This document shows positions 73 to 55,154 of a DNA stretch of 64,000 nt, piece by piece (the stretch's first letter is position 1; the number at the start of each line of letters is the position of its first letter). The notes under the pieces are model-generated. The model saw only the letters and a list, made by a program, of their open reading frames with translations, was not told the DNA's origin and did no database searches. Made by a program: the position numbers and the translations under genes. Origin of the DNA: Candidatus Bathyarchaeota archaeon (GTDB lineage Archaea > Thermoproteota > Bathyarchaeia > Bathyarchaeales > DTEX01); contig CAVQNT010000003.1 of NCBI GenBank assembly GCA_963714275.1, forward strand, positions 32,001 through 96,000. The letters run 5' to 3'.

Positions 73-197
73 AGTCCAAGTTATTTAGAAAGCAAATTTG
101 TTATGGTGTCTTCAGCAGGTTAGAAGCGTTTTAGTCAGCTAACTAGTGAGCTTAACTTTATCTTCACAGACCGCTTATGTTTTAGTCTGTTAATGTC

Positions 198-348
198 TCA
201 TAAGCTGACGGATTTCGAGATGTTTGCTGCCATAATCTCCTCGTTGTTTGGCGTCTTCACGAAAGCTGGGACATTCCTCTGTTTCGTCGCCTTGTAAGAA
301 ACAAAAAGTCATTCACCAAGATCCAGACTCTGTTGTTTTATCAAGCAG
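198..348 (-). pseudogene. C-terminal stub of a HerA-like ATPase, a diverged homolog of 36395..38174
   Basis: Manual translation gives LLDKTTE[+1 nt]LDLGE*LFVSYKATKQRNVPAFVKTPNNEEIMAANISKSVSL*, versus the HerA tail LLDKTTELDIGEWLFVSYKATKQRNVPAFVKTPNNEELVTGNLLKTINL*. Confidence 0.9.
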
Positions 349-354
349 CCCGAC

Positions 355-1047
355 TTACTCTTCTATCATTTGGCAAAAATATACCCTATATCCCCTTTGC
401 TCAGATGGTGAGCTTATAAAAGAAGAGTTGTCTCGTTTTTTGTAGAAGTATAGTCCTAATGCAATTATGGTCAAGACAATTATAATGACTCCAAAGAACA
501 TGTATACAAAATACCACGGTATCGGGTCGATAATTGCGAAGGTTTCGATGCTATCCTCGAAGTTGGAAAGGAACTGCTGGTATCGAGCTGTGACAGCAGC
601 GTACGTTACAATATATATCCTCAGGTTCCTGACCATCATGACCATGTTAATCATGAGATCATACCCCCCTGTGGAGACAGCGGCAACAATCTCATAAGCG
701 TTGACACCATTGATGATCCTCTCGGACTCGGAAATGATAAAGGAACTGTTGAACATTGTTGGATACTGGTCCTTGATGGATGTAGCCAAATCTTCCAGTG
801 TTATATCAGACGAAGTGGTTTCAATATTGATCTGAATCAGTACAAGGCCTTCATCCTCCCATGTCGGCTCGAAGAAGGTTACCATAGCAGTTCCCGATGT
901 TGTCTCATTAATAGTCCATCCTGAAGGTTCCTCAATCGAAAAAAAGTTCGCATTACTTGTATAAGCATGCACGGAATCCACAGAAACATGTAACAAAAGA
1001 ATAATGACCGCAACCGTCAACGTTTTCTTTATACCTAGAACCATCAA
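355..1047 (-). CDS. Secreted, membrane-anchored PsbP/DcrB-like domain protein
   Basis: N-terminal signal peptide; FSIEEPSGW and IYIVTYAA...FEDSIETF pattern of the PsbP/Mog1 fold; C-terminal TM helix. Confidence 0.65.
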   Translation of the reverse strand: MMVLGIKKTLTVAVIILLLHVSVDSVHAYTSNANFFSIEEPSGWTINETTSGTAMVTFFEPTWEDEGLVLIQINIETTSSDITLEDLATSIKDQYPTMFNSSFIISESERIINGVNAYEIVAAVSTGGYDLMINMVMMVRNLRIYIVTYAAVTARYQQFLSNFEDSIETFAIIDPIPWYFVYMFFGVIIIVLTIIALGLYFYKKRDNSSFISSPSEQRGYRVYFCQMIEE

Positions 1048-1259
1048 ATAGCCTCATTTTCTGCATTATTCAAAAAGTGCTCTTAATAGCCTTTTGCATC
1101 ATTGTTCGAAAAAACAAAAAAACCACCAAAATGGTAACTTTTTAACATACAATGGTGACCATGTTTACAATGAAGGTAAGTATCTTAACTACAACAATCT
1201 TAATGAAAACCTAACCTAATAATGAATAGAGTATATTAATCCAAAAATAAGGAGGAAAA

Positions 1260-5209: not shown

Positions 5210-5298
5210 GAGAAGACCGAAGAGTTTAACCATACAGGTGGAAATAAACACTTGTTTCTCCAGATTATGAAGAGGACATAGCGTTACGATTAACTAGC
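5210..5298 (+). pseudogene. C-terminal stub of a homolog of the GH5-like gene at 1260..2634
   Basis: 24 nt are identical to 2542..2565 (GAGAAGACCGAAGAGTTTAACCAT); reads EKTEEFNHTGGNK/TLVSPDYEEDIALRLTS versus EKTEEFNHASGNKILFSPDYKEDIALRIIT. Confidence 0.9.
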
Positions 5299-5382
5299 TT
5301 TTTCTGTGGTCATCATTTCTATTCAATGAGTTGAAAAGTTTTAAATTTACTTACATTTATCTTCTAGGCTAGGTTTAGCGAA

Positions 5383-6579: not shown

Positions 6580-8105
6580 TTGAAAGAAATGGTTCAGTTA
6601 ATGGGAATTGATGTAGGTACATCAAGCACTAAAGTTTTAGTTGTCAACGAGAACGGAAATGTTAATGCTAATGCTTCCTGTGACTATCCTATTTCAAATC
6701 CCTCTCCAGACTGGGCTGAACAAGACCCAGAATGGTGGTGGAACGCTGTTAGAATTGGAGTTAAGAAAATTTCGAGTCTTTCCAAAGTTAAATTATCCAA
6801 TATTTCAGCTATCGGTCTTACAGGACAGATGCATGGAACTGTCTTGCTTGGAAGAGACCTCAAACCACTAAGACAATCCATAATTTGGGCGGATAAAAGA
6901 AGCATCCCTCAATGCAAGGAAATCTATGAAAGAATTGGCAAGAAAGAGATTCAAAAAACACTGTGTAACCCGATTATGCCAGGATTTATGGCTGCTTCTT
7001 TGCTTTGGATAAAGGAAAATGAACCTTCAATCTTCAAAAAGGCTTTCAAAGTTCTCCCGCCTAAAGATTATATTAGGTTCAGACTAACAGATTCCTGTAT
7101 TACGGATGTCTCTGATGCTTCAGCAACGCTTCTTTTTGATATAAAAAGAAGGAAATGGGCAAGTCAGATACTTTCAACACTTGGATTTTCGTCGGAGTTA
7201 TTTCCTGAATTCTTTGAATCTGTCAATGTAACCGGCGAAGTATCAGCTGACGCCTCCAACGAAACTGGTTTACCTAAGGGACTCCCAGTCATAGCTGGAG
7301 GAGGAGACTCTCCAGTTGGAGCAGTGGGTTGTGGAGCCATAAAAGAAGGCATAGTCTCTTCAAACATAGGCACTGGAGGACAGATTTTCACCACGCTAAA
7401 TAAGCCTGAAGCTGATCCGTTAAGTCGGATTCATACTTTCTGTCACGCTGTTCCGGGGAAATGGCATCTTCAAGGAGCAATTTTGGCAGCTGGCTTATCA
7501 TTAAGATGGTTTAAAGAAAATCTTGGTCAAATGGAACAGACCTTGGGAAATCTCTGTAACACTGATCCCTACAATCTACTTTCCAAAGAAGCTGAATTAG
7601 CAGAGCCTGGTTGTAAGGGTTTGATTTTTGTTCCTTATCTCCTTGGGGAACGTTCACCTCACATGGATCCTAACGCAAGAGGCGTTTTGTATGGTTTAAG
7701 TTTGGAACATAAAAGGTCGCACTTGGTTAGGTCAGTCATGGAAGGTGTTGTTTATGCTCTCAGGGATTCATTGGAAATCTTCAGGGAATTGGGAGTTAAA
7801 GCTGAAAAGGTTATCGCTCGAGGAGGCGGAGTGAGGAGCTCATTATGGAGGCAGATCCAGACTGATATCTTCAATATGGAAGTGATTTCTACGAATGTCA
7901 AGGAGGAAGTCGCTTATGGAGTGCGCTTCTTGCCGGAGTCGGTGTCGGCATTTATGATGATTTAGAAAAGGCATGCCAAGAAACTATTCGTACTTCTAAC
8001 AAAGAGATGCCAAATTCTAAAAGAACAAAAGTTTATGATGAATATTACAAGATTTATACTAGATTGTATTCCGCGTTAAAAAACATCAATACTATTCTAA
8101 TGTAA
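6580..8105 (+). CDS. xylB: Xylulokinase (FGGY family); frameshift near 7920
   Basis: GIDVGTSSTK, TGQMHG and PYLLGERSPH motifs; C-terminus ALLAGVGVGIY...ILM* continues in another frame to 8105. Confidence 0.9.
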
Positions 8106-8271: not shown

Positions 8272-9308
8272 ATGAATAGTCGAGAACGTGTGATAAAGGC
8301 TGTAGAATTTAAGGGACCAGACCGTGTGCCTAACGGTTGCTATTGGCTACCAGGAGCCTTTAATAAGTATGATGGAGAGTTGGAGAACCTGTTTCTCCGC
8401 TACCCAAAAGACTTTCACCAATTCGTAGTAGCTTCTCAAGATCGTGGCTACCCTATCAAGAGGGCATTAACAAAGATATCTGGGGATGTGTCTGGAAAAA
8501 CATTAAACCAGGAATTCTTGGACGCATCATTGAACATCCATTATCTGACTGGAAAAATCTAGAAAATTGTAAGCTGCCTGACCCTTCTGGACTCATCAAC
8601 TTCAACGAGACTAATAAAAAATATACGTCTAAATAAACACGAACGCTACATTTTAGGAGACTCAGAAAACTTCTTTGAACGGCTACATTGGTTACGCGGT
8701 TACGAAAAAACATTAATAGACATAACGACAGGCAGTAAAGAATTCAAAAAGTTAATTGACGCCATGTTCAATTTAAAGGTCAATTTCATTAAACGTTGGT
8801 TTGAGCTCTGACATTGATGGTCTCTACTTCTCAGACGAAAGGGGAACCATGCAAGGGCTAATGATAAATCCGAAACTTTGGCGCGCATACTTCAAGCCTT
8901 GCTACCAAAAAATGTTCGACATTGTACATAAGGCTGGAAAACACGTATTCTTTCACAGCGACGGAAAAGTCATAGACATCATACCAGACTTCATTGAAAT
9001 GGGGGTTGACGCAATAAATGTCCAAGTGAACCTCATAGGCATCGACAAAATAAGCAAAGAATTCGGCGGAAAAATTTGCATTCTCGCTGATGTTGACCGA
9101 CAATTTATTCTTCCATTCAGTACAGTGGATGGAGTAAGGGATCACATAAAAAACATAATTCAATCTTTAGCACATTTCAATGGCGGATTAATAGCATGGG
9201 GAGAAATAGGACCAGATGTCCCATTATCAAACGCAGAAGCTTATGCTACAGGCATTTGCAGAATATGGGAAATATGAAAAAGCACAACAACATAATTTCA
9301 TCAAATAA
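8272..9308 (+). CDS. Uroporphyrinogen decarboxylase/MtaA-CmuA family protein, with several frameshifts (may be a pseudogene)
   Basis: MNSRERV...PDRVP start, FFERLHWLRG, FFHSDG and DRQFILPF motifs spread over several frames. Confidence 0.75.
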
Positions 9309-12980: not shown

Positions 12981-13070
12981 CCGCGTTCTTCAAGCGATGA
13001 CCTTTTCAGCCTTAACTCCCAATTCCTTAAAGATCTCCAGTGAATCTCTAAGCATAAACAACACCCCTTC
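12981..13070 (-). pseudogene. Internal stub of a xylulokinase homolog
   Basis: Reverse complement aligns with xylB 7741..7830 (EGVVYALRDSLEIF[K/R]ELGVKAEKVIA) with small indels and CGA>TGA. Confidence 0.9.
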
Positions 13071-13147
13071 AAGCTAGTAATATATATCAAAAGTTGAGAA
13101 TACATAACTCAGGATATTAGTGAGCTAGTAAATGAGTGTTTGAAGAT

Positions 13148-14660
13148 ATGCGCCATAATAAAAATTTGAAAACTCATTTACGCATGTTTCTCATGACTTT
13201 GTTGATGATTTGCCTTATTCTGCCATCTTCCTTTCATTCGTCCTTAGGAAACCCGGCTTAATACTTATTATGGTGTTGTGCCCTCAAAAATTTTCTTATA
13301 TTTACTTAATGATGCGAACAATTTTACTTCAGGCTGGGTACTGGGCAGTAATTCTTCTCGTACAGGTTCTCCTGGTCTTAATGGTAAAACCGTTGCGACG
13401 AAAGCTTTACTTGCGATTGTTGCTGCAGAGAACGACACAAACGTTAAGGTTTACGATCTGACGTTGAACAGCCTGATCTCACAGGATCATATAGATAGTA
13501 TGGAGAAGCACCTTGTTTTATTGGCTAATGGCACCGTATTCAAGGTTGTTTCAGATAAGCAAGTTTCTGTTTTGTTGCTCAACTATCAAAATATGCCTGT
13601 TGGCGCCGTTACAGAAGGACCACTGCCCTATACATTCTACACTGATGTTCATGGCTTGTATGTCGGCAAAAAATTCGTTCTCATGGCTTCTGAGCAAATA
13701 TTTTATTCGGAAAATAAATTTTACACATTACTAGCCTTGGAAAAATCCAAAGTCACTGTGACCAGAGATGATAGTCAACAAAACGAATATTCTCTTGATG
13801 CAAACTCATACACAACCATGTTGCTTGATATCTTCAGAGTCTACAAAATCGAATCAACAGGCAACATAATGGTGCAATCAAGCACAACTTGGGCTGATAT
13901 AGGAAGCGGCCTTTCTCCGCTCCGTTATAAAGCATCTTATCCGGTTCCTTGTGCCACAGGAGGCTTTGTTGGGCAGTTCTTCGTGGTAAAAGCGAGGAAA
14001 GGATGGGACCCCGATACAGATTACGGGTTTCGAATATCAGCTTCAGAAGATACGAAAGTGAAAGTTTTTGATCTCTCAACAAAGCAAGTGGTAAATGATT
14101 TATCAGTGAAAGGAGGAACCGGAATTGGGTTCCAACCGTCAGCGGATGCAATAGGCATGCAGAGCGATAAACCGATCACATTATTATACTTTAACAATGG
14201 CACCCTCGGCACGTCAAGAACTGCACAAATTGGTGTAGGAGTAATGTTCATGGGCATTCAACCTAACCAAAACACTCCAATCTACTTACCCACTGATACC
14301 AATGTCGAGGTATACTTCTTCGTAAACGAAGAAACAGAACTGATGGTTGATGGTTCCAGTCAAACAATCCAGCCTGATCAGCCAAAATTGTATATCCTAT
14401 TAGGAACTCACACGATACAAGCCGACCACAACGTTATCCTCCAAGTCAACTTCTGGCCCAACGAACCCGAATATCAGGGATTATGGTTCCCAGGAGCAGC
14501 AATACCATGCATAGAAACGGTTGCTAACAACCCAACTGTCACATTGACCCCTCTCGGAGAAGGCTTCCCGATGATGTACATAATAGCTGGAGCAGGCGCC
14601 GCAGTCGCTGTCATTGTCGTTGTCTTAGTGATGAGAAGACGGGGCGGTAAACCAAGCTAG
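13148..14660 (+). CDS. Secreted beta-rich surface protein with IgGFc-binding N-terminal-like repeats and a C-terminal TM anchor; frameshift near 13248
   Basis: Signal peptide MRHNKNL...MFLMTLLMICLILP; repeated A-x-E-D-T-x-V and SDKP motifs; GEGFP + TM + RRR tail; paralog of 31477..32969. Confidence 0.65.
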
Positions 14661-14763
14661 AACGCCCCAAAAATTCGCAGTTAAGGCAAAAATTCCTCCC
14701 TTCATTTTTACTCAGAGATCTACTTTTAAACCTTGATTCTTGGCGTTTTACTAAATAATTATA

Positions 14764-14779
14764 TAGCTAGCTAGCTAGC
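14764..14779. repeat. (TAGC)4 intergenic tetramer repeat
   Basis: TAGCTAGCTAGCTAGC. Confidence 0.8.
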
Positions 14780-14823
14780 AAAACAATTAAGGGTAGAAAA
14801 GAGACAACAAATGGGATAGAATC

Positions 14824-15822
14824 TTGAACTCCAGAGAGAGATTTGCTGCTTCGCTCCGCTTTCAACAACCAGATAGGATACCATTCTATGACGAGGAGAT
14901 TCGTGAAGAAACCTTAGCACGCTGGTATGAGCAAGGATTGCCAAAAGGTAGGGATCCGAGGGAGCTTTTTAGGTTAGAAAAGTGGGATATTGTGCCAGTC
15001 AACTTGGAAATGATCCCAGAATTTCAAGGACGATTCAGGTCTAGGAAGGATTCCGAGAGACTTAAAAAATCATTCAATCCAGACGAATCATCAAGGTATC
15101 CCACCAATTGGGAGAACCTCGTTGGTCGATGGGAGGATCGCGACTATCCACTCGGAATATCGGTTTGGGAAGGATTCTTTCAACCATTCAATTCTGGAAG
15201 TGTACCAGATACAGTGTATCATTCGCTCACGGATATTGTCCGAATGATATACTCAAATCCTGAACTCTTGGTAGAGACGGTCAACTTCATCGCCGAATTC
15301 GTTATCAGAACGATGAGCAAAACGCTCGATGAAGTGAAGATTGATTATGCTATCATATGGGAACCCATTGCAGAAAACAAAGGTCCTGCAATTTCACCTC
15401 CAAGTTTTCAAGATTTAGTGATCCCATGCTACAAGAGAATTATAGAAACCCTCAACAGTCACGGAATTGACATAATCATTCTCAGCACCTTTGGAAACGT
15501 GAAAGAACTGATTCCTCTATGCCTTGATGTAGGGATTAACGTATTATGGTGTAGAGGAACCAAACCTGCAGGAGTAGACTATGTCGCCCTAAGGAAGAAG
15601 TACGGGCAAAAGCTAGCTCTAATAGGTGGCATAGACATAGGATGTTTGACTGAAGACAAAGAGGCAATCAAAGCTGAAATATACTCTAAGGTTCCACCAC
15701 TCCTCTCTTCAGGAGGATACATTCCCATGTTGGACGGAAGAGTACGTGAAAATATACCCTTTGAAAATTATGCCTACTATAGGAGACTCATTGAAGAAAT
15801 AGCCTGCAAGAAAATGGAATGA
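14824..15822 (+). CDS. Uroporphyrinogen decarboxylase/MtaA-CmuA family protein
   Basis: MNSRERF...PDRIP, ISPPSF, LIGGID and GGYIP motifs. Confidence 0.85.
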   Translation: MNSRERFAASLRFQQPDRIPFYDEEIREETLARWYEQGLPKGRDPRELFRLEKWDIVPVNLEMIPEFQGRFRSRKDSERLKKSFNPDESSRYPTNWENLVGRWEDRDYPLGISVWEGFFQPFNSGSVPDTVYHSLTDIVRMIYSNPELLVETVNFIAEFVIRTMSKTLDEVKIDYAIIWEPIAENKGPAISPPSFQDLVIPCYKRIIETLNSHGIDIIILSTFGNVKELIPLCLDVGINVLWCRGTKPAGVDYVALRKKYGQKLALIGGIDIGCLTEDKEAIKAEIYSKVPPLLSSGGYIPMLDGRVRENIPFENYAYYRRLIEEIACKKME

Positions 15823-15891
15823 TTAAAAACCATAGCTAGCTCACTTAAATTCTAACAAGCGAGCTGGCCAGAGACTGAGTTCAAACACGCG

Positions 15892-16159
15892 TTATTTAGG
15901 ATTTAGCCACACTCTCAACATGAAGCCTAGTTTATTCAGATCAAATGCCCAAATTACTTCCCAAGGTATGGTTATGCGTCCACCGCGTAGAAGTTTAGCG
16001 ACAAAATCTTCGCTACCAAGTTTGCCAATTGGTTGAATTCTTACCTTTAATAGTTCTCCAGGTTCCAGTTTATAGCGCCCCCTAACCTCTACAGGTATCT
16101 GGACACGATTCAACTTCTGCATCTTCACTAAAAACATAACAGTTTCAGTTAAAGGCATG
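15892..16159 (-). CDS. Tandem AbrB/MazE/SpoVT DNA-binding protein
   Basis: Two swapped-hairpin repeats (NRVQIPVEVR..YKLEPGE; GRITIPWEV); likely start MPLTETV after a GGTGGA RBS. Confidence 0.8.
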
Positions 16160-16451
16160 CTTCCACCAGACACGTATAGTTCCAGCTTCATGAACCCTAT
16201 TTGGCTTAGTCACTGTTAGTTATGATGCATCTATGTCAATTCATGACAAAGTATGGATTTTTTTTCAATTCCAATCTCAGCAAAAAATTCTACGTTTGCT
16301 AGCCTAGCCCAAAAATAGTCCTTCTTAATCATGCATAGTTCATTCAAATTCCTGTGCAAAGAAGAGTGCTTCTCCGAATCTTTTACATTTTTCGTTAATC
16401 CTTTTTAAATGCTTTCGTTTTTTGATCGTTTGAGAACTGTGTGACGAGCCT

Positions 16452-23918: not shown

Positions 23919-23967
23919 GTCCCCCACACAACACAACAAGCTCAAAACGAAAACGCACTTAATTTCC

Positions 23968-24050: not shown

Positions 24051-24166
24051 ACGTGAGATAAGCCAAATTTAAACCCTGTTTTATAAAAACAGACTGAAAC
24101 AGACTTATCATAAAGCTGCATTCTGCACTGTCCTACAATTGAAGGAAGAGAAATCATATGAATTAG

Positions 24167-34027: not shown

Positions 34028-34063
34028 ATATTAGTGAGCTTAACTATAGTTAGTGAGCTAATT
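34028..34063. repeat. Representative copy of the dispersed intergenic TAGT/TGAG/CTAG/TAAC motif
   Basis: TAGTGAGCTTAACT is identical at 144..157 and 34032..34045; ATATTAGTGAGCT is identical at 13114..13126 and 34028..34040. Confidence 0.7.
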
Positions 34064-35235: not shown

Positions 35236-35263
35236 TAGGAGCGAAATAGAAGAGGTTAACTAG

Positions 35264-36241
35264 TCAGCCAGCCAGCTTTAGTTTTTTAACTGCTTTTTTC
35301 GCCCAGTTTGAATCATTAAAAAGTGCTCTGCCTACTGCTACCAAATCCACCTTTCCTTCCTTTATGATTTTATCTGCATATTCTGGTTCAGTGATTCCTC
35401 CAACGCCGATAATTGGAATCTTAACGACTTTTTTTATTTTATGGGCAATGGGGATAAAATAGCCCTGTCCAGTTTGAAGAGATTCTGGACTTGATCCACA
35501 GAAACCTCCTGAAACATGAATTACGTCGACACCAGCCTCTTCCATTTTAACAACAAATTTCTTAGAATCCTTAATATCGACACCAGCTGGGTCAAGGTCA
35601 ACTGCGCCCAGACGGTAAGACAGAATTTTCCCACTAAGTTTTTCTCTAACTCTTTCAACAACCTCTAAAGGAAAACGCATACGATTTTCCAAAGAGCCGC
35701 CGTAATTGTCAGTGCGTCTGTTCACAAGTGGCGAGAAAAACTGGTTCAGCAGATAACCGTGGGCACCGTGCAACTCAACTCCGTCGAAATCCGCTTTCAC
35801 AGCCCTCTCAGTAGCTAAAGCGAAGGCTTCAGTCACAGCCTCGATTTCTTTAACTTCCAGTTGCCTAGAACCCCCAAAAGGTGAAGGAGCAACTGGCTGC
35901 GTTCCAGTTATTTCAGCATTTGCCGATTTCCCAGCATGGTTAATCTGTATAATAACAGATGTACCTTTTTTGTGGATGCTGTGTGCAAGTTCCTTCAACC
36001 CAGAAACTAAGTTATCGCCGTATATGCCCAGCCGGTTTTGGCTGACCCTTCCTTCAATTGTTACGTAACTATGTTCAACAATTACTAAACCCAACGCTTC
36101 TGACCTTTGAACATAATGTTCAATCAACGAGTCGGTTACAGCTCCATTATTAGTAGCAAGGCCAGTATGCATGGGAGGCATTACAAATCGGTTTCTAAGC
36201 GTCAACCCTCGTATATTCAAAGGGTCAAGAATGCCAACCAA
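35264..36241 (-). CDS. NADH:flavin oxidoreductase (old yellow enzyme family)
   Basis: NRFVMPPM, HGAHGYLLNQFFSP, RTDNYGGS and DLVAVGRA motifs. Confidence 0.92.
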   Translation of the reverse strand: MVGILDPLNIRGLTLRNRFVMPPMHTGLATNNGAVTDSLIEHYVQRSEALGLVIVEHSYVTIEGRVSQNRLGIYGDNLVSGLKELAHSIHKKGTSVIIQINHAGKSANAEITGTQPVAPSPFGGSRQLEVKEIEAVTEAFALATERAVKADFDGVELHGAHGYLLNQFFSPLVNRRTDNYGGSLENRMRFPLEVVERVREKLSGKILSYRLGAVDLDPAGVDIKDSKKFVVKMEEAGVDVIHVSGGFCGSSPESLQTGQGYFIPIAHKIKKVVKIPIIGVGGITEPEYADKIIKEGKVDLVAVGRALFNDSNWAKKAVKKLKLAG

Positions 36242-36394: not shown

Positions 36395-38174
36395 TTAGAG
36401 ATTAATGGTTTTCAATAGATTTCCTGTCACAAGCTCTTCATTATTAGGTGTCTTCACGAAAGCAGGGACGTTCCTTTGTTTTGTTGCCTTATATGATACG
36501 AAGAGCCATTCTCCGATGTCTAGCTCGGTTGTTTTGTCAAGCAGGTCGTAGCTTAGACTGAAAGCGTCTGCAATGACCATTCTGTCATAGAACCGTGGAA
36601 GCACACTGACAAAGTAGCTATGCAATTGCTGTAGGGCGTTCACGTTGAGGTGGGCTACACGCTGACTGCATATCCAGCAGTTCGCACGGTACTTTCTCCC
36701 CTGACGCAAAAGTGCCTCAACAGCTGTGTTTGATTGTTCTGTGAAATCCTCTCTTCTTGTTCTGTCAGGGATGAACTCTTGAGCCTCATCTAGGACTGTC
36801 AGCACCGTTCTTCCAACACCTCTTGTTTTCTTCAGCCACAATAAGCGATTTATGAAGCGGCTAACGACCTGTCGGGCAATGTCAGGTTCTGGAGTGTAAA
36901 CAATGCTTATGCCTGAAAAGTCTTCAGTTGCAACTTTGGCAGCTAGCCATTCAGCATTTCTGATAACCCCTTTTCCCTGCTTTTCCTTGGTGGGGGCTTC
37001 TCCATCTAAGACCTTGATTATGGCTTGAATGTCTTTTACAGTGCCAGACATATGATGAATAGAAGATTCGAACTCTTGCAGTATTGCTTTGAGCTCTTCT
37101 TTTGCTATATTATCCTTGGTAATATCTTCTAATAGGGTTTCGTCGCTGTATCCTCTTTCCAAGGTGAAGGCGTTCAGATTGTCAAGTGCTATTGTTGCTT
37201 GAATTACTTCTTTCTCTTTCCCTCGTGCTATTCCACCGACGAGTTCCAGTATGAGCCCCATAGTGAGAGGGATTGATTCTAGCGGGTAAGAAAGTGACAG
37301 CCTCTGAACCTTTCCGTCATCAACCAATTTCTTAATCGCCTGGGCAATAAGGTGCTTGTCGAGCTTCATTTCAAGTGTTTCCGGAATGGCTTGCGAATCC
37401 ATGATTCTATCAATGTCTTTACCAAAGTCTTCTGTCGAGAACAATTTTGGAGCAAGATCCAAGAGGTGTATAAGGTATTCTCCAGCAACATCGAAAACTA
37501 CAACAGATAGATTAGGTATACTTGCCAACGATTTCCTTAGAAGAATAGAGCTTAGATTTGACTTTCCGCAGCCGGTGAAGCCAAATATTCCAGTGTGGTA
37601 ACGAACCATCTCAGACATTTTTACCGTAAGTGGGAGATCAAAACCGATAAGTGTTCCAACTTCTACCCCGCCTGCTATGCACAGAAAATCATTAACAATC
37701 TGTCTAGAAAGAATATTAGCTTCGCTTCCTACTAACGGCGTTAAATTTGACCTTTCAAAAGCAAGCCTATCATCATGAATGTTCATTCTATAATTTGTGG
37801 GGACAGCAACCACATCAATCCATGTTTCCTCACTAGCCTTCCAGCTGCTGTCAATAGTTTCCAAGAACTCCTTCCGAATCACCTTTGGCACAGAAATGTC
37901 CATGCCAAGCATTTGATAATGCATCGGACGGACACCCACAACCTCATAAATAATAAAAGTCTCGCCACCACCTGTTGGCCTTTTAAAAGTCTATAAAATT
38001 TGGCTCATGCAGTTTGTCCAAGACTTCAAGACTGAACTTTGCTTCAGCCACAGCAACCTGGCTTGTTACAGTTACCTCACCCTCCCTCATCCTGGAGGTT
38101 CTAGTCGATATCCTGTGGGCTCTCAAACGTGCAGAAAACCCGCCGTTCATTTCATCAAACACTTCATACAACAC
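36395..38174 (-). CDS. herA: HerA/FtsK-like ATPase with an N-terminal HAS-barrel-like region; frameshift near 37985
   Basis: Walker A GFTGCGKS, Walker B VLDEAQ and R-x-GRKY...SQR motifs; ORFs 37983..38174 and 36395..37939 join; coupled to nurA. Confidence 0.85.
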
Positions 38175-39976
38175 TATATCTCCATTAACGCTGCTTTTTC
38201 ACGCGCTCCCTCAGTCTCTCTCCTAATATCCCTAAATCTACGGGCTATAGTGAATATCTTTTGCTTCCTAGAGAGACTTCCTAACTCAAGATCAGCTACG
38301 CCTCTAAGCATACCCTTCATCATCTTCACCTCATTTTTGACAGCTTTGTCAGCTAAGTACAACAACTGGTTATGACCTATTGCTTCGATAACTTCGGGAT
38401 TGTCACACTTCGAAAGAAGACAGAGAATAAAGGTGTCAAGGGGATTCTCTTTCTTGCCTTCCCAAAAGGGATGAATCAAAGCTTTTCTTCCCCTTTCAAA
38501 AACTTCAATGTCCGCACCATAAGCATTGTCGATTTTAGGCACATAAAACCTGTCATAAAGAAACGTGGGAGATCGGACTTCAAAATCTGACTTGAACTCT
38601 CTGAGCTGAAAATAGCCCTTGACAAACTGTCTCTCCATAGAAACTACTTGTCTAGCAGCTCTCATCGGAACATCTCCTTCCCCTTCAATAAGAGTCGTGA
38701 AACAAGAATCATAGCTAAGTGTGCGCCAAGGAACCCTGAAAAGGCCAGGATTAGTACTACTGAGTATGGTTAAAAATGCGCGGTCATGCCTAAGATTAGG
38801 AAGCTTCTCCTCTTTGGGTATCAAGCCCTCAATTCTGGCATAGGGAATGGCTGCACGTATGTAATCTGAGGCAGAGGTGTCCTTAGCTATCCCGACAACA
38901 AGAACATTACTGGTCAGAGCCTTCTCCCTAAGCATTTGAATTAACATGACATTAACAGCGTTCATGTCAAGAACGGTTAACCAAGATTCGCCTTTCCCCA
39001 ACATCAACGGATGCTCAGAAGAATTGAAGACTGTCTCCACAACTTGTGTAGTAGTGTCCTTAACTCTTAACCAATAGTCTTTCACGTGACCCTTGAGTCT
39101 AATAACGGGATTCTCACGTTCTAAGTCGATGTCTTCAGCAAGAAGCCCATTATCCGAAGACTTATGCATCTTAACAAGCCTTTTAAGAAGCCTTTTGCCA
39201 GCCTTATCAGAAATCCCCAATCTTACCGACAATTCCTGTGCTGAGAGCTCACCAACCTGCAACAATTTTTGAACAGCAACAAAAGGAAGATACTGGCTCC
39301 TATCTGACACCCAATTCATTCCAGAACCAAGAACAGACGCTAAACTTAAGTCAAGAAGTGTAAGGGGACCATGAACAGTCTCTTTTCCGAAAAGAACCGA
39401 TCTCCTAATCCTCAGAAGCAGCCGAAGGTCTCTGGCTAAAGGTCCATGTGTACCATACAATGGCCTATCGAGAAATAGAAGCCGAACTCTGTCATCCTCA
39501 ATGGCCTTCAACGCTAGAGACAGCTCTGCCATCGTCATCAAGGCAAACGGTATACGTTCAGCAGACCTCGCTAAATCCTGCTCAGTAGAACCTTGCTCAT
39601 CAGTAACAAAGAAAAGGTCCTCAGTCCACAAAGGAACCGAAGCTGAAGCCGCAAGCCTCTCATCTCTGGAGACATTGTCTAGACTGAAATGAATCTCCTT
39701 GCCCACAGAAAAATCGCAGCGGAAACCAGAGGCACAGACATAAAAAAGAAGCATTTCGAGAAGTTCATCAAACTCCATGGAACCGTCGATGCCAACCGCC
39801 ACATAATTGCCTGGCTCCAAGAAAGCAGCCTGAACATCAGAGGACTTAGGACACCTAATACAGGGACTCAGCCTTTCCCTGTTCCTTAGCTCTTGTATCC
39901 TGCTGGTAAGTAAATCAGCCAACTCTGAAGTCTGCTTCCTAAGTCTCTCCGCAAGAAGAACCATTTTAGACCCCAA
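38174..39976 (-). CDS. nurA: NurA-family nuclease, long form with an inserted wHTH
   Basis: GIDGS, FLDRPL and VGIAKD motifs and a GHNQLLYLADK C-terminal motif; inserted LSAQELSVRLGIS HTH. Confidence 0.8.
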   Translation of the reverse strand: MGSKMVLLAERLRKQTSELADLLTSRIQELRNRERLSPCIRCPKSSDVQAAFLEPGNYVAVGIDGSMEFDELLEMLLFYVCASGFRCDFSVGKEIHFSLDNVSRDERLAASASVPLWTEDLFFVTDEQGSTEQDLARSAERIPFALMTMAELSLALKAIEDDRVRLLFLDRPLYGTHGPLARDLRLLLRIRRSVLFGKETVHGPLTLLDLSLASVLGSGMNWVSDRSQYLPFVAVQKLLQVGELSAQELSVRLGISDKAGKRLLKRLVKMHKSSDNGLLAEDIDLERENPVIRLKGHVKDYWLRVKDTTTQVVETVFNSSEHPLMLGKGESWLTVLDMNAVNVMLIQMLREKALTSNVLVVGIAKDTSASDYIRAAIPYARIEGLIPKEEKLPNLRHDRAFLTILSSTNPGLFRVPWRTLSYDSCFTTLIEGEGDVPMRAARQVVSMERQFVKGYFQLREFKSDFEVRSPTFLYDRFYVPKIDNAYGADIEVFERGRKALIHPFWEGKKENPLDTFILCLLSKCDNPEVIEAIGHNQLLYLADKAVKNEVKMMKGMLRGVADLELGSLSRKQKIFTIARRFRDIRRETEGAREKAALMEI

Positions 39977-44509: not shown

Positions 44510-44694
44510 ACAAAGTTAAAACAAATTTTTAAAAGCTCAGCTAGTCATCCATCTCAGACACTCAGTTAGTCACTGATATTTCTACGTAAAGAATATTTTT
44601 GGGTTTGGGGATTAAATTTTAATGCATACACACATTTTACGATTGAATATTTAAGCGAAGAAGAAAAAGACGAGTTAAAGTCTATAACGGCTTA

Positions 44695-44878: not shown

Positions 44879-45766
44879 TTAGGGTTTCAGTCCCGCCAAT
44901 ATCGCCTGAAAAATGTATTTCGCAGTAGGTCGGTTTTGATAGAGCACCCTCTTCACAAGTCCCACTTGGAGGAATTTCTTCCTAAGCACTGGGCTTGCTC
45001 GCATTAGTTTAAGCAGAACTTTCGTAATTTTGAAGAGATTTTTCCAACCTCCCACATTTTTAATCTTTTCATGAAAATTCGGTTCAGAAAATTGTTCAGC
45101 TACATGAACGTGCTCAAACCCCGCTTGTGTCAACCATTCGACATAGTCAGTAATCAAGGGAATGTGAAATTTATATCCCAATACGGCGGAATATATTTGT
45201 TCTGCTGCTAGAATTTTTGCATCCGCTCTAGCATTTACCTTCGGATCTTTCATGAGTTCCGCCAATGCAATTTGTCCACCAGATTTTAATGCCGAAAAAA
45301 AACCCTCAAATGCACTCTGTTGCAGGAAAAACGCCATAAATTCAGTAATAACCACATCAAAAGTATTGGGTGGAAAGGATAATGCATGTGCATCCCCTAT
45401 TTGGAAATGTAATTTTTCATGGGCTGGCGACTTTGATGCAAGGGTATTGGCAGTGCGTATCGATTCTGGCGATATGTCAATTCCATACACCATTGCTCCT
45501 GTAGTCTCTGCCAAGTGCACGGAAGTACCACCCGCCCCACACCCAACTATTAATACCGTACTGGAATCTGTAATTCGGGCTAATTTGGCGATGAGTTCAA
45601 TCGGTTTATTCCCTTGAGAGTTAAATGATAGCAGCCCCAATTTACTGATTATTTCATACCAAGAAAGACCTTCAAGGTTCTTTGACGTGGCTGCCAAAAA
45701 TTTATCGATCTCTAACATGCCCAATACCTCAATATCGTGGAAAATGATAACAATGTATTGAAACAT
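44879..45766 (-). CDS. Class I SAM-dependent methyltransferase
   Basis: VLIVGCGAGG, GIDIS, GDAHALSF..NTFDVV and LKSGG motifs; the true start may be MLEIDK (45718). Confidence 0.9.
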   Translation of the reverse strand: MFQYIVIIFHDIEVLGMLEIDKFLAATSKNLEGLSWYEIISKLGLLSFNSQGNKPIELIAKLARITDSSTVLIVGCGAGGTSVHLAETTGAMVYGIDISPESIRTANTLASKSPAHEKLHFQIGDAHALSFPPNTFDVVITEFMAFFLQQSAFEGFFSALKSGGQIALAELMKDPKVNARADAKILAAEQIYSAVLGYKFHIPLITDYVEWLTQAGFEHVHVAEQFSEPNFHEKIKNVGGWKNLFKITKVLLKLMRASPVLRKKFLQVGLVKRVLYQNRPTAKYIFQAILAGLKP

Positions 45767-45873
45767 TGATTTTTCCCTTAATAATGGTCACTACCTCCCT
45801 TTCAATTTCTAGCTATCAACATGCATTACAATCGACATTCAATCGTAAAATGTGTGTGTGCATTAAATTTTAA

Positions 45874-46929
45874 TTAAAACTTGCCGTATTTCCACGCTTC
45901 ATCATACATGGCGATGATGTTTTTCACTGATGTAACGGGCTGGATGTTGTGACAAGGAGCTAAGATGTATCCTGTTTTGTCGCTGGCAAGTGCATTAATG
46001 CAGTGCCTGACCTCCGTACGCACCTCCTCCGACGTCCCAAATGGTAGAACTCGCTGATTGTCCACGCCACCGTGAAAACAGAAACTTGCACCAAACTCCT
46101 TTTTCAAGCCTTCGAGGTCCATTCCTGGGCAGGTCCACTGCAGCGGGTTCAAGATGTCTATGCCCATCTCTATGATGTCTGGTATGAAGAGGCGGATGGC
46201 GCCGTCATCGTGGTGGAATACCTTGATCCCGAAGCTGTGCGCCAGGTCGATGAACCTTTGCATGATCGGTCTGTAGAACTCGCGGAAGACTTTCAAGCTG
46301 ATCATAGGTCCTGCCTGGGTGCCAAAGTCGTCTGTCACTTGGGTGACATCGATCAGTCCGTCACATGCCTCAAACATGCGCCGATGCTGTTCATACAAGA
46401 AATTGGCTATTTCCTCCAGCAGTCGACGCGTGAACTCAGGGCGGACAAACGGATCGACCAGAGACGTCTTCAGACCACGAAGCTTGTTATGCTGGAAGAA
46501 AATCGCCATATAACCACACATGACAACCTGCTTTTCGCAACCGGCTTTGGCAGCTGCACGCATCTCCGAGTAATTAAACCAGTCTGCCCTTGGCCATGTG
46601 TATTTCTCCAAATCCTCGATGGTACGGGCATCTGACAGAGGATTATGTGTCATCTCGTCGTATACGCCCATTGCGTAGCTGACCTTCTTTGTGCGGATTC
46701 CCCAATAGTCAATAGTCTCGTCTTCAGCGACCATGGGCAGCTTCGGACCAACATAATTAGGTTCGACACTTGCCATTCCGTCAATATGCAGCTTGGCACG
46801 GACATCTGCTTCCTTGCCGAAATATGCCTTCAGCCTACCCCACACCTCTGGTGTGGTCCAGATATCCGTGGGGATGTGATCCAGCCTTTCATGGTTGAAG
46901 GCTGCAAGCACTCGTTCCCTTGAGTTCAT
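45874..46929 (-). CDS. Uroporphyrinogen decarboxylase/MtaA-CmuA family protein
   Basis: MNSRERV, DDFGTQ, HHDDG, GGVDNQ..LPFGT and LAPCHNIQ motifs. Confidence 0.9.
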   Translation of the reverse strand: MNSRERVLAAFNHERLDHIPTDIWTTPEVWGRLKAYFGKEADVRAKLHIDGMASVEPNYVGPKLPMVAEDETIDYWGIRTKKVSYAMGVYDEMTHNPLSDARTIEDLEKYTWPRADWFNYSEMRAAAKAGCEKQVVMCGYMAIFFQHNKLRGLKTSLVDPFVRPEFTRRLLEEIANFLYEQHRRMFEACDGLIDVTQVTDDFGTQAGPMISLKVFREFYRPIMQRFIDLAHSFGIKVFHHDDGAIRLFIPDIIEMGIDILNPLQWTCPGMDLEGLKKEFGASFCFHGGVDNQRVLPFGTSEEVRTEVRHCINALASDKTGYILAPCHNIQPVTSVKNIIAMYDEAWKYGKF

Positions 46930-47011: not shown

Positions 47012-48097
47012 TTGAATATTAAGGAAAGAGCGATGGCAGTCTACCATAACGATGAGCCTGACAAGATACCTTGGTTGATCTATGAGGAACTATTCCCTAG
47101 AGGCTACATGGATCGACAACTAAGAAACAAAGGTTTAGGTCTAAAGGTTTCAGCAGTCGTTTTTAGAGAAGAAACCCCACATGTACGCGTTGAAACCAGA
47201 ACGGTCGGTGATTATACCTATCGGACCTTCCACACCCCCGTCGGTGATCTAACAACGAAGGAACGAATAGGACTAGCTGAAGGAGCCGGCGCCTCCTGGC
47301 TTATAGAGCATCCTGTAAAGGATGTTTCGGATTTCGCGGTAGCTGAGTACATGATAGAAGACACCGTTTATGTGCCCGATAATGATCTGTTCCTGAAAGC
47401 TGAACGGAACATCGGTGATGACGGAATAGTCTTCGTCTGGGCTGGACGTTCCCCTCTGCAAAAGATGCAGGTCGAGTTAATGGGGTACAGAACCTTTGCC
47501 ATCGCAATGTACCAGTTTCGGAAAGAATTCCAAAGCCTTCATAGAGTGTTAGAGAAGAAAGCAAACGAACGGTACAAGCTAATTTCTGAGTCTCCGGCTA
47601 AGATTATTAACGGAGGGGACAACATAAACAGCGAGATCGTGAACCCACGACTCTTCGACCAGTACATCGTCCCATTCTATGAGAGACAAGCTAGCCTCCT
47701 CCACAAGAAGGACAAGATCCTCGAAGATCACATGGACGGCAAGCTGAGGCATCTGAAAGACGCAATCGCCAAAATGGACTTGGACGCAATCGAGGCGTTC
47801 ACTCCACCGCCGATGGGAGACCTCCCACTAGTCGAAGCCAGATCAGCATGGAAAGGAAAGATCGTAAGCCTCAACTTTCCCGAATCTGTCTTCCTAGAAG
47901 GCGCCACCGCAGTCAAGAAGCAAACACTGAAGGTGCTGAATGAAGCCGCACCAGGCGACAACTTCATCATTACAGTCACAGAGGACATTCCGTCGGACCA
48001 TCGTTGGACCGGATTGTCAACAGTCACAACAACATTGCGGAAATATGGAGCATATCCATTAACTCATCTTCCACACAGCAGTAGCAGGTCCAATTGA
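47012..48097 (+). CDS. URO-D-like (MtaA/CmuA superfamily) protein
   Basis: KERAMA...PDKIP, HMDG and IEAFTPPPMGD motifs. Confidence 0.75.
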   Translation: MNIKERAMAVYHNDEPDKIPWLIYEELFPRGYMDRQLRNKGLGLKVSAVVFREETPHVRVETRTVGDYTYRTFHTPVGDLTTKERIGLAEGAGASWLIEHPVKDVSDFAVAEYMIEDTVYVPDNDLFLKAERNIGDDGIVFVWAGRSPLQKMQVELMGYRTFAIAMYQFRKEFQSLHRVLEKKANERYKLISESPAKIINGGDNINSEIVNPRLFDQYIVPFYERQASLLHKKDKILEDHMDGKLRHLKDAIAKMDLDAIEAFTPPPMGDLPLVEARSAWKGKIVSLNFPESVFLEGATAVKKQTLKVLNEAAPGDNFIITVTEDIPSDHRWTGLSTVTTTLRKYGAYPLTHLPHSSSRSN

Positions 48098-48189
48098 GGA
48101 TTTAGCTGACTAGCGTTGTTTTCAAGTATCAACAAAATTTTATATATTATGAATACATGTGCCTTCATGAGCAAAAAGGAGGATAAAAG

Positions 48190-52680: not shown

Positions 52681-52852
52681 ATACTTTTATGAATTCGTCT
52701 GAAGGATAGTTCCTTTTTTTGCTTCTTTAAAACCTCTATGACATCGCATTATTTGTTCTTTCCTCTTTAACAAGTCTGCGAAAAGGAAGAGAGATAGAAA
52801 AAACTTAAGGTTCAAGTATTATGCGGATCACGGGTTCCAGCTAGTAAATGAA

Positions 52853-54250
52853 TTATAGGTTATACTCTTCCATGTATGTTGGGGCGCTCACTTCCCATCC
52901 GCCCTTAGACTGGAGGTAGCTCTCTAAGGCCAAAATTGGTCCTTCTTCGCCGTGGGTCAGAAAAACATGTTTTGGCGGAGATTTAAAGTTGTTGAGCCAG
53001 CGGTGCAGGTCGTTCATGCCAGCGTGGGCGGAAAAGGCGTCGATCTTTTCGATCTTCATCCTCACTGGAAAGTATTGTCCGAAGATTCTAACTGGGGAAA
53101 CATTATTCAAAATTTGGCGTCCAAGTGTCCCCACTGCCTGGTATCCCACGAAGAGAAGTGTGGATTCTGGACGAGTAATATTCATGGTTAGGTGATGTTT
53201 AATGCGTCCTCCTGTGATCATCCCTGAACCGGCCATGATAATAGTTGATCCTTTTATAAGGTTAATCGCCTTGGACGCTTCAACAGATTCGACGAGCTTC
53301 AATCCCGGAAAATCGAAGGGAGACTGACCATCTTTGAAGAGTCCAAGCGTCTCATTGTTAAGATATTTTTTACATCGTTCAAAGACCTTCGTGACTTCAA
53401 CAGCCATAGGACTGTCGAGAAAAGTCATAATATAAGGGATCCTTTTCTCACGCGCTAAACGGTCTAAATGATAAAGAAGTTCTTGAGCACGCTCGATGGC
53501 GAAGGTTGGGATGAGAAGATTTCCACCCGTCCGCACTGTACTGTTTATGATCGTGCATAGTTGTTCTTCAATGTCTCGGGATATACCATGGTCGCTATCT
53601 CCATAAGTGGACTCCATAACCACGTAATCCGCCCGGTCAAAAACAGAAGGATTGCCGAGCAGAGGCTTGTCCCACTGCCCAATGTCACCAGAAAAAATGA
53701 TGTTTCGTGAACCATTCTCATCTTGGACTACAATCTCAATCATAGCAGAGCCAAGGATGTGACCAGCATCATGGAAACAAACTTTAACTCGGTCATTTAA
53801 CTGTAGATAGTGCTCGTAGGGAACGTCTTTTAGTAAAGGAAAACAGTTCTTGGCATCCTGAACTGTATATAGAGGAATTTCTGGGTAAGGTCCCTTTCGG
53901 CCTTCCTTATCATGCCTTTTTTTCTTGAAAGCAGCATCTTCCTCTTGCATCTTGGCAGAATCCAAAATTACAATCGGAAAAAGCTCTTTTGACGCAGGGG
54001 TCAGCAGGATATCTCCGGTGAATCCTTCCTTGACAAGCTTTGGAATAAGCCCAGAGTGGTCTATATGAACATGGGTGAGAAGAAGATACTGAATCTGGTT
54101 TGGGGGAACAGGGAATTCCTTCCAGTTTCTGTTGGAATAGTCCCGCTCCTGAAACAGTCCACAATCGACAAGGATCTTCAGTCCACCAATATCAAGAAAG
54201 TAGCTTGATCCCGTCACTTGATGCGTTGCGCCTAAGAATTTTATTTTCAT
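52853..54250 (-). CDS. MBL-fold metallo-hydrolase, beta-CASP RNase family
   Basis: THVHIDHSG, AGHILGS, FSGDIG, MESTYG, FSAHA and THGE motifs. Confidence 0.92.
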   Translation of the reverse strand: MKIKFLGATHQVTGSSYFLDIGGLKILVDCGLFQERDYSNRNWKEFPVPPNQIQYLLLTHVHIDHSGLIPKLVKEGFTGDILLTPASKELFPIVILDSAKMQEEDAAFKKKRHDKEGRKGPYPEIPLYTVQDAKNCFPLLKDVPYEHYLQLNDRVKVCFHDAGHILGSAMIEIVVQDENGSRNIIFSGDIGQWDKPLLGNPSVFDRADYVVMESTYGDSDHGISRDIEEQLCTIINSTVRTGGNLLIPTFAIERAQELLYHLDRLAREKRIPYIMTFLDSPMAVEVTKVFERCKKYLNNETLGLFKDGQSPFDFPGLKLVESVEASKAINLIKGSTIIMAGSGMITGGRIKHHLTMNITRPESTLLFVGYQAVGTLGRQILNNVSPVRIFGQYFPVRMKIEKIDAFSAHAGMNDLHRWLNNFKSPPKHVFLTHGEEGPILALESYLQSKGGWEVSAPTYMEEYNL

Positions 54251-54483
54251 GAGCTTTTCCCCTTGCATCGACATTGTTTATTTAACGGTTCTTCTAAGCA
54301 TGCTGTCCACTTCATAGTATCATCACAAAGAAGCATTTAAGAAATACACTGATCTTTTAAGCACACTCACTAAGAAAAGCCATGTTGACATTACGAATTG
54401 CCCAAAAGACTAACATCGCCATAAGACTAAATATAAAGTTGACAGATTCCATGTTAAGAACCCCTTTCCTAGAAGGTGACCTT

Positions 54484-55056
54484 ATGAAAAAATATAAGTC
54501 AATAGCATTTTTAGGCGGAGCCGACATCAAGCCGGAAGACCAAACCTACAAAGATGCCTATATGACGGCGAAGTATCTGGCTCAACTGGGCTTAACAATC
54601 TACAACGGCGGAGGACCAGGCGTGATGAGAGCATCAACCGAAGGCGCCAAATCAGCTGGAGGAAAAGTCATTGGAGTAACATATTACCCCAATGTGCCTC
54701 ATTCGAATTTTGAAGGAAAGGATCCCCAAAACGCCTTCGACGAGGAGATCAAGACATCAGATTATTTTGAACGAATAAAACAACTGCTAGTATTAAGTGA
54801 CATCCACATCGTCTTCAGAGGAGGAACCGGAACAATATCTGAGTTTGGCATGGCTTGGGCTGCCTCTAGGATTCGTGCTGGTCAAGAAAGACCCATTATC
54901 CTTTTTGGAGGGTTCTGGAAAACCATCATTGAGAACTTTAAGAGATACATGTACATGCGACCCGGCGAATTTCGACTGTATAAAATAGTAGAGTCTGTGG
55001 ATGAGGCTGTAGATGAAGTAAAACATCTTATCAGTTCAAAGGAAGAGGACGTATGA
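54484..55056 (+). CDS. LOG family protein (SLOG nucleotide-binding)
   Basis: GGGPGVM.A..EGA, ER...L and GG.GT..E motifs. Confidence 0.88.
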   Translation: MKKYKSIAFLGGADIKPEDQTYKDAYMTAKYLAQLGLTIYNGGGPGVMRASTEGAKSAGGKVIGVTYYPNVPHSNFEGKDPQNAFDEEIKTSDYFERIKQLLVLSDIHIVFRGGTGTISEFGMAWAASRIRAGQERPIILFGGFWKTIIENFKRYMYMRPGEFRLYKIVESVDEAVDEVKHLISSKEEDV

Positions 55057-55154
55057 AGATGAACTGTACCTAGGAACTAACTAGCTAGTGATGTAGGATA
55101 AAAATATAAAGTCTAAATTACATATTAGAACATGCATAACAGTGTGAGAGATGA

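Follow-up and report, generated by a model that had tools for sequence, protein, structure and literature searches.

The spacers between genes in a 64 kb stretch of genomic DNA from a Candidatus Bathyarchaeota archaeon (contig CAVQNT010000003.1; hereafter, the window) contain many more copies of a palindromic word, AGCTAG(CT), and of a companion box, TAGTSAGCTWA, than expected from composition. The excess is restricted to spacers, the word is strict, and its copies are often closely paired and show no single-strand structure. One site is kept upstream of the orthologous gene on a related contig. We tentatively propose, with a probability of about 0.35, that the sites are recognition words of a sequence-specific DNA-binding or DNA-modifying protein acting on duplex DNA. 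This reading is preferred because the word is strict, palindromic, read as duplex, found in spacers only and closely paired. An earlier note on this DNA had described a dispersed motif of 4-nt units at 16 places and suggested that it marks junctions between unrelated gene modules, perhaps as the site of a cassette-shuffling system. No evidence in the window shows a gene-cassette shuffling machine.

Enriched words in the intergenic spacers

Genes were delimited by a mechanical, non-overlapping set of 64 open reading frames (ORFs) of at least 70 amino acids, which occupies 83.8% of the window (G+C content, 42.1%). The 52 segments of at least 20 nt outside this set, 10,327 nt in total, were treated as spacers. 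When every 5-, 6- and 7-mer of the spacers was ranked, without bias, against 300 dinucleotide-preserving shuffles, CTAGC (38 occurrences against 13.2 expected), AGCTAG (22 against 4.6), GCTAGC (9 against 1.2) and AGCTAGC (11 against 0.9) came out at or near the top. Comparison with composition-matched shuffles, the check that the earlier note had named, gave the same picture: AGCTAG or CTAGCT matched 22 times in the spacers, far above the 4.5-4.7 or so expected, and none of 1000 shuffles reached this count. After overlapping matches were collapsed there were 14 clusters against 4.3, distributed in 12 segments against 4.1 (0 of 1000 shuffles). TAGTSAGCT was found 6 times in the spacers against 0.17, and TSAGCTA 12 times against 2.8, counts that were again not reached in 1000 shuffles. 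Shuffles of the whole window agreed, both for AGCTAGC (16 against 4.9; 0 of 100) and for TAGTSAGCTWA with at most one mismatch (11 against 4.1; 0 of 100). Coding DNA compared with synonymous-codon shuffles showed no excess of any of these words (for example, AGCTAG, 20 against 17.5; GCTAGC, 7 against 6.3). What stands of the motif as first described is these two exact word families; the loose class of period-4 or YTAR units was not significant, since the 10 YTARYTAR arrays in the spacers (6.5 expected) were matched by 131 of 1000 shuffles. Approximate-match counting of 10- to 14-mers in the spacers returned only A/T-rich low-complexity words and was dropped.

All 16 stretches read as the earlier note had described them, and the five exact long matches among them were found at the places given: TAGTGAGCTTAACT at 144 and 34032, ATATTAGTGAGCT at 13114 and 34028, AGCTAGTAAATGA at 13123 and 52839, AGCTGAGCTAG at 31222 and, in reverse, at 24537, and TTAGTCACTG at 16206 and 44566. 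Such matches alone are weak proof because repeated 13- and 14-mers are common across the window (164 distinct exact 13-mers against 104 in shuffles; 56 14-mers against 30). The enriched words are carried by 14 of the 16 stretches and are absent from those at 16206-16222 and 35255-35276, which are weak members. Three further spacer copies of AGCTAG, at 2712, 5294 and 45809, had not been listed. Fifteen of the 16 lie wholly outside ORFs; the exception, at 35255-35276, shares 13 nt with the ORF at 35264-36241 (minus strand), at its 3′ end.

The abundance of repeated 13- and 14-mers, together with the two stretches that lack an enriched word, would fit a simpler view in which there is no specific element, and the sites are products of simple-sequence slippage or similar low-complexity strings picked by eye. 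One array, (TAGC)4 at 14764-14779, may be a microsatellite or contingency locus, and the site at 13114 differs by 7 nt from its counterpart on the related contig, a difference that could represent one 4-nt unit and 3 nt more. We nevertheless judge this view very improbable. The unbiased ranking puts the same words on top. Among tandem loci with tetranucleotide units, those of the AGCT class are in excess (4 against 0.39), and those of the other classes together are at expectation (37 against 36.0). Similarly, local direct repeats of at least 7 nt containing AGCT or CTAG occur at 4 loci (8 rows) against 0.33 expected, and the remaining 17, of other sequence, come close to the 14.3 of the shuffles. 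On these counts a general slippage or cryptic simplicity was rejected, and within the window chance and general simple sequence are largely excluded.

The core of the first family is the palindrome AGCTAG(CT), in which AGCT and CTAG overlap. Its longer forms AGCTAGCT and CTAGCTAG occur in the spacers 4 times against 0.13 and 3 times against 0.12, respectively. A general excess of palindromes was ruled out, as other spacer 6-mer palindromes (those without AGCT or CTAG) number 89 against 78.9; in coding DNA, 6-mer palindromes taken together are depleted (495 against 595). The word is strict. Exact AGCTAG is 4.8-fold in excess in the spacers (22 against 4.5), and its 18 one-mismatch neighbours sum to 98 against 83.6. 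A conversion bias like that of very-short-patch repair, which predicts depleted T-neighbours, was rejected because AGTTAG (9 against 6.1) and GTTAGC (4 against 3.5) are not depleted. The second box, TAGTSAGCTWA, is not palindromic. It has five exact copies at three loci (132, 144, 34032, 34051 and, on the minus strand, 48102), which together with a one-mismatch copy at 13118 all lie in spacers; the other five one-mismatch matches fall in ORFs. Sites are often paired at distances of 4, 12-13, 14, 16 or 19 nt. Spacings of 4 and 5 nt between CTAG and CTAG are in excess (3 against 0.61 and 5 against 0.58; together, as CTAG-N0/1-CTAG, 8 against 1.2). None of 15 sites that were folded was structured beyond shuffles (z from -1.9 to +1.1), and scans of the window with Rfam and for tRNA genes returned 0 matches and 0 genes. 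This lack of hairpin potential and of Rfam matches indicates that the word is read as duplex DNA.

Position of the sites relative to genes

AGCTAG clusters are about as dense in divergent spacers (2 in 1825 nt, 1.1/kb) as in convergent (3 in 1973 nt) and tandem ones (9 in 6001 nt; both 1.5/kb), with spacer classes that rest on the mechanical ORF map and could be altered by unannotated small genes, RNAs or transcripts. The similar densities show no exclusive tie of the word to promoters or to 3′ ends. Because the relatives of this DNA are Bathyarchaeia, the spacers were read with archaeal promoters in mind, that is, with a TATA-like box and no sigma-70. By eye, 5-6 of about 15 sites fit a placement directly 5′ of the TATA-like box of a correctly oriented gene, as a TFB-recognition element would be placed. 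Four of the 14 spacer clusters sit at most 30 nt past a stop codon. The idea that they are downstream back-up stops was rejected, as the 64 gene ends show no consistent pattern.

Two loci have paired exact boxes. At 131-157 (plus strand), two tandem boxes of 11-13 nt, TAGTCAGCTAA and TAGTGAGCTTA, were also detected by TRF (period 12, 2.1 copies) about 45 nt from a HerA-like C-terminal stub. At 34028-34063 (plus strand), TAGTGAGCTTA and TAGTGAGCTAA are 19 nt apart in a divergent spacer. The remaining exact box, another TAGTCAGCTAA at 48102-48114 (minus strand), begins 5 nt past the stop codon at 48097. The unlisted AGCTAG at 2712-2717 is in a spacer or pseudogene tail, and that within AACTAGCT (5292-5299) lies where a paralogue stub ends and precedes the start at 5383 by 89 nt. 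The (TAGC)4 array is located between a TATA-like box and the start codon of the gene at 14824, and TAGCTAGCTCACTTAA (15833-15848) follows the stop codon of the same gene (14824-15822) by 11 nt. Further along, CAGCTGAGCTAG and AACTAACT (31221-31243) are 250 nt upstream of 31477, where a paralogue (31477-32969; 40-44% identity) of the gene at 13147-14660 begins; this paralogue is frameshifted near 32256-32290, where a CTAGCT sits. A convergent spacer holds AGCTCAGCTAGTCA and TTAGTCACTGA (44534-44576), and the third unlisted site, CTAGCT at 45809-45814, is 43 nt upstream of the start at 45766 of a methyltransferase gene (44879-45766, minus strand). That gene is bracketed by a 38-nt inverted repeat, 95% complementary (44611-44648 and 45837-45874), the right arm of which overlaps the 3′ end of a URO-D-like gene (45874-46929, minus strand). 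AGCTAGTAAATGA at 52839-52851, the same sequence as at 13123-13135, abuts the stop codon of 52853-54274 (minus strand). ACTAACTAGCTAGTGA (55076-55091) is 20 nt past the stop at 55056, with a TATA-like box about 10 nt downstream of it.

At the strongest site (24520-24551), which is in a divergent spacer, the word GCTAGCTSA occurs twice at a distance of 16 nt, and this pair adjoins the TATA-like box of a small, divergently placed gene at 24167-24466 (minus strand). The 99-amino-acid product matches the N-terminal family of the SSV1 integrase at a borderline level (PF07935, E = 1.2e-4), and the tail after this match is coiled-coil-like. The Atlas cluster closest to the product is a family of 97 amino acids from Bathyarchaeota; the view that the product is an integrase fragment was rejected in favour of a stand-alone small-protein family. 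It is possible that this product binds DNA.

The words are rich in TAG, TAA and TGA, and it had been suggested that they are cassettes that stop all frames on both strands and so insulate newly joined DNA. The (TAGC)4 array and the sites at 44534-44576 and 55076-55091 do stop all six frames, and the sites that closely follow stop codons would suit such a function. Among the 16, however, only these three stop all six frames. Generic period-4 arrays of three stop codons on the plus strand are barely above chance in the spacers (7 against 2.9, reached by 37 of 1000 shuffles), the YTAR arrays are not enriched, and the excess within the window is confined to one word and does not extend to stop-rich words generally. 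In addition, the strongest sites (24520 and 34028) are in divergent spacers, where no ribosome arrives. A role as translational insulators is therefore highly improbable.

Truncated genes, unit borders and possible gene movement

The earlier note had placed two of the sites exactly where a gene stub begins, and both placements were borne out. The homology of a xylB-like fragment (12993-13073, minus strand), which is 81% identical to residues 387-413 of the kinase encoded at 6580-7965, begins directly after CTAGCT, so that its breakpoint abuts AGCTAGTAA at 13072-13080. At the nucleotide level, 84 nt of the kinase gene recur in inverted orientation at 12987-13070. Likewise, the homology of an AbiEii-like nucleotidyltransferase C-terminal stub (27343-27567, plus strand) starts at 27343, directly after AGCTAGCTACTTA, and AGCTAGCTACTTAA (27330-27343) lies at this 5′ truncation point. 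The open frame, 27328-27567, matches the last 74 residues of proteins of 162-184 amino acids with 88-92% identity, and the source annotation of one of these is AbiEii/AbiGii-family nucleotidyltransferase. TCAGCTA occurs twice, at a distance of 14 nt, in the site at 27561-27583, which overlaps the stop codon of the stub. This stub and a 99-amino-acid ORF at 15892-16191 (minus strand), which has a weak PHROG antitoxin match (E = 9e-4), are possible remnants of toxin-antitoxin modules. The word abuts two of five truncation breakpoints (13073 and 27343). It is missing from the other three, the 5′ ends of the HerA-like stub (48 C-terminal residues of a HerA-like paralogue at 201-344, minus strand; 69% identity) and of the paralogue stub (about 5195), and the far end of the xylB-like fragment. 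With 14 clusters in 10.3 kb, a single breakpoint would abut a word by chance in roughly 3% of cases and two of five would do so by accident in about 1%, by our own estimate and for cases picked after the fact.

The only related locus in the genome collection searched is a contig of an uncultured Candidatus Bathyarchaeia metagenome-assembled genome (MAG), L001, with 81% protein identity. It shares only positions 13078-14663 of the window (82.4% identity over 1587 nt), a block that comprises a TATA-like box, a 5′ region and one gene (13147-14660) and ends 3 nt past the stop codon. Collections of plasmids and phages yielded nothing matching 13000-15900. The block is edged on both sides by CAAGCTAG in the window (13070 and 14653) and by AGTTAGA in L001, and the site at 13072-13080 forms its left edge. 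One AGYTAG word immediately precedes the TATA-like box, and a second one lies between this box and the ATG (about 13147), as ATATTAGTGAGCTAGTAAATGA at 13114-13135 (plus strand). Both places are kept in the L001 orthologue, as AGTTAG and AGCTAG, the second within ATATTAGCTAGTTGAG, 7 nt shorter. An artefact of Hi-C or cloning junctions, of the AAGCTAGCTT fill-in type, was considered and is unlikely, as the independent MAG has AGCTAG at the orthologous place. The neighbouring gene, 14824-15822, is flanked by ATAGCTAGCT (14762 and 15832), which is common to 14762-14771 and the site past its stop codon.

Both stubs and the edges of this block support the claim that the sites mark junctions, which otherwise found little backing. 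Of 47 genes, 2 are flanked by motif-bearing repeats of at least 8 nt, whereas for mismatched gene pairs the figure is 5 of 2070; flanking direct repeats of that length of any sequence are not in excess (6 of 47 genes, against 11.3% between unrelated genes). The G+C content at third codon positions (GC3) ranges from 0.30 to 0.61 between genes, and its jumps are not significantly larger at spacers with the motif (median 0.079, n = 16) than at others (0.047, n = 30; one-sided p = 0.16). The link of the motif to module junctions is thin.

Many genes of the window are split, which may be real gene decay or indel errors of long-read assembly. Among 14 junctions between ORF fragments, the permissible intervals included GCTAG (5 nt) and CAGTCTAG (8 nt), and two contained CTAGCT. 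Judged against relatives, the beta-propeller gene has one extra G within a native CTA GCT AGG (25821-25830), and the gene of the major facilitator superfamily (MFS) a -1 shift at 23218-23222, 17 nt from a word. The gene at 13147-14660 is shifted with respect to L001 in its signal-peptide region (13255-13270). A link between frameshifts and the motif was dropped, because once the MFS and beta-propeller shifts had been placed it rested on one, perhaps two, of the 14 junctions. As a separate observation, CTAGNCTAG occurs five times (5364, 16299, 19072, 25821 and 28035) against 0.58 expected. Three of these copies are perfect 5-nt tandem duplications (CTAGGCTAGG twice and CTAGCCTAGC once), and the copy at 25821 is the frameshift site of the beta-propeller gene.

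Enzymes that could move genes were sought throughout the window. No tyrosine or serine recombinase or transposase domain was found in any of the 64 ORFs or in follow-up scans, which leaves the 64 kb without the recombinase or IS5-like transposase that a mobile-element origin calls for, and neither the DDE nor the HUH transposase family is represented in it. A repeat search detected no inverted ends of insertion sequences (IS) at the sites. An integron-like array with non-attC sites, as suggested earlier, would have sequence elements at the borders of single-gene units, and two genes of the window are indeed flanked by the word (13072 to 14660 and 14762 to 15841). Ghaly et al. (2022) reportedly described integrons in archaeal MAGs. 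The window, however, lacks an integrase of the IntI kind in its 64 ORFs. Its sites are 6-13 nt long and not imperfect palindromes of 60-140 nt (no such structure appeared at the 15 folded sites), and its genes are on both strands with their own TATA-like boxes inside the units, unlike the mostly promoterless cassettes of an integron, which share one orientation. The integron-like model fails three defining features, is already contradicted, and is the least probable of the explanations considered.

Short extragenic repeats that are species-specific, often clustered and variably spaced are also known from the REP/BIME elements and their RAYT transposases (PMC2817692, PMC3733652). REPs are hairpin palindromes of 20-40 nt with a GTAG or CGTC tag; the sites in the window fold no better than shuffles and lack the tag, and no Y1 transposase is encoded within the 64 kb.

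The main rival to a recognition word is a hot spot for breakage and rejoining or for insertion, a looser form of the recombination and IS-footprint options of the earlier note. AGCT and CTAG palindromes would be cut by a restriction-type nuclease, or targeted by a CTAG-specific transposase, encoded elsewhere, and repair with short fill-in duplications or joining of foreign segments would leave scars. These would multiply where spacers are unconstrained and would mark the borders of some cassettes. CTAG is the target of IS630, and the IS5 group and IS481 target YTAR and NCTAGN, respectively. The CTAG-centred words, the pairs of CTAG at 4 and 5 nt, which resemble retained target duplications, and the tandem loci of the AGCT class are all consistent with this explanation. 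So are the two breakpoints that abut the word, the paired edges of the L001 block (CAAGCTAG in one genome, AGTTAGA in the other) and the motif-bearing repeats that flank two genes. The strictness of the word and its even density across spacer classes fit a mutational origin, and the window is a mosaic, with its 14 fragment junctions and several stubs. On the other hand, no transposase, recombinase, nuclease or IS end is present within the 64 kb, three of the five breakpoints lack the word, and YTAR arrays are not enriched; of the footprints expected from IS, only the CTAG-N0/1-CTAG pairs are in excess. One of those pairs is a native Leu-Ala-Arg coding stretch with one extra base, and neither of the two frameshifts that could be placed fits the insertion of a unit. 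GC3 jumps and general flanking repeats give no support, and the TAGTSAGCTWA box is no simple duplication product. We know of no well-documented prokaryotic precedent for scars multiplying in this manner. On balance we consider this explanation unlikely, and somewhat less probable than a recognition word.

A further reading would have single units of promoter plus gene moved by an undescribed archaeal system that uses AGCTAG(CT) as its core site, with its enzyme encoded elsewhere in the genome. The two ends of the unit at 13072-14660 have changed together (CAAGCTAG against AGTTAGA), as they should if each insertion creates both from a single target or core site. The unit next to it, flanked by ATAGCTAGCT, and the two genes truncated exactly at the word could be accommodated as well. 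Such a system is improbable.

A possible recognition word and its reader

Under the preferred reading, a protein would read the word, and binding or methylation there could affect transcription or mark the DNA. The strictness of the word is enzyme-like. Candidate readers are an orphan or restriction-linked DNA methyltransferase, a dimeric regulator or an architectural protein. Clusters of 2-4 sites beside core promoters and gene ends would offer several adjacent targets for one protein, and the presence of sites at rearrangement junctions would be secondary, either because the word stands at the edge of a promoter unit or because it is a fragile point.

Bacterial GATC or GANTC clusters illustrate how methylation targets can be enriched in intergenic DNA. 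HIP1 of cyanobacteria (GCGATCGC), a palindrome of octamer size linked in the literature to methyltransferase targets, is a word of similar kind over-represented in one lineage, although HIP1 is far denser and is abundant in coding DNA too, where the word in the window is at expectation. The met-box arrays bound by MetJ, tandem palindromic operators made of AGACGTCT repeats, recall the head-to-tail arrangement of an 8-nt palindrome in (TAGC)4, which equals two AGCTAGCT boxes, and the box pairs near promoters; in contrast to met-boxes, the sites in the window are irregularly spaced, occur in convergent spacers as well and have no known cognate repressor. Among archaea, passages of one paper (PMC10609329) describe a conserved orphan N4-methylcytosine (m4C) methyltransferase for CTAG in Halobacteria, where CTAG is under-represented yet clustered upstream of orc genes, and list AGCT (m4C) enzymes in Methanoculleus. 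To the extent of those passages, clusters of palindromes as targets of archaeal DNA-modifying enzymes have a precedent. The word in the window resembles such targets in being short, strict and palindromic, in combining CTAG with AGCT, and in clustering in spacers, at times beside promoters. It departs from them in that the excess is at the level of 6- to 8-mers (AGCTAG, GCTAGC) and not of 4-mers.

Several observations weigh against a recognition word. No DNA methyltransferase, restriction enzyme or classical regulator gene was found in the window, and its sole methyltransferase (44879-45766) belongs to the small-molecule kind. For 4-mers the spacers show a small excess (CTAG, 42 against 32.5; AGCT, 56 against 44.7), and an excess of 6- to 8-mers would not be predicted from a simple methylase of CTAG or AGCT alone. 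Sites keep no fixed distance from start codons (24 to 250 nt) or TATA-like boxes, as would be usual for transcription-factor operators, their spacing within pairs varies (12, 14, 16 and 19 nt), and the equal density in convergent spacers argues against a plain promoter operator. The retention of sites in L001 argues only weakly for constraint, given an overall identity of about 80% in this region. At the density of the window, about 3.9 clusters would be predicted for the roughly 2.9 kb of spacer of L001; it has one AGCTAG there, which is fewer but not decisively so. Finally, the two of five breakpoints at the word are explained more directly by breakage or insertion.

The surroundings of the sites add some context. 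The window encodes mainly sugar and oxidoreductase enzymes, glycoside hydrolases, several URO-D-like proteins, an oligopeptide-type ABC transporter and a HerA/NurA-like pair (36395-39976), in which a HerA-like ATPase of 514 amino acids adjoins a protein of 600 amino acids with a weak NurA match. The closest proteins of three further genes of the window come from Bathyarchaeia or Bathyarchaeota wherever a source is named, and metagenome proteins 88-94% identical to proteins of the window were found. Four URO-D-like genes or fragments (8801-9277, 14824-15822, 45874-46929 and 47012-48097), the others 20-25% identical to the first, form an old, expanded family. GGCC is strongly depleted throughout the window (61 against 158.7 expected, ratio 0.38), the pattern expected under a GGCC-specific restriction system. 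The (GC)4-5 runs AGCGCGCGCGC and AGCGCGCGCT (about 2660-2675 and 29716-29726) are found shortly past two gene ends, and GCGCGC occurs 5 times in the spacers against 0.5 expected. The spacer at 23919-24166 has two short tandem arrays of 10-mers at 24020-24105, with 3.1 copies of ACCTTCTGTA and 1.9 of AAACAGACTG.

The statistical signal reported here is real but modest, it comes from a single window of 64 kb, and a mechanism for it is proposed only. A literature search found no paper on such a motif in Bathyarchaeia, an abundant and uncultured group in which almost nothing is known of regulatory or epigenetic DNA signals or of the movement of accessory genes. If the word marks the borders of insertions, it would suggest that archaea shuffle single genes in a novel way. 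If it is a target of methylation or binding, a strict palindrome found only in spacers would provide a handle for methylome or DNA affinity purification sequencing (DAP-seq) work and would be a candidate global signal in this lineage.

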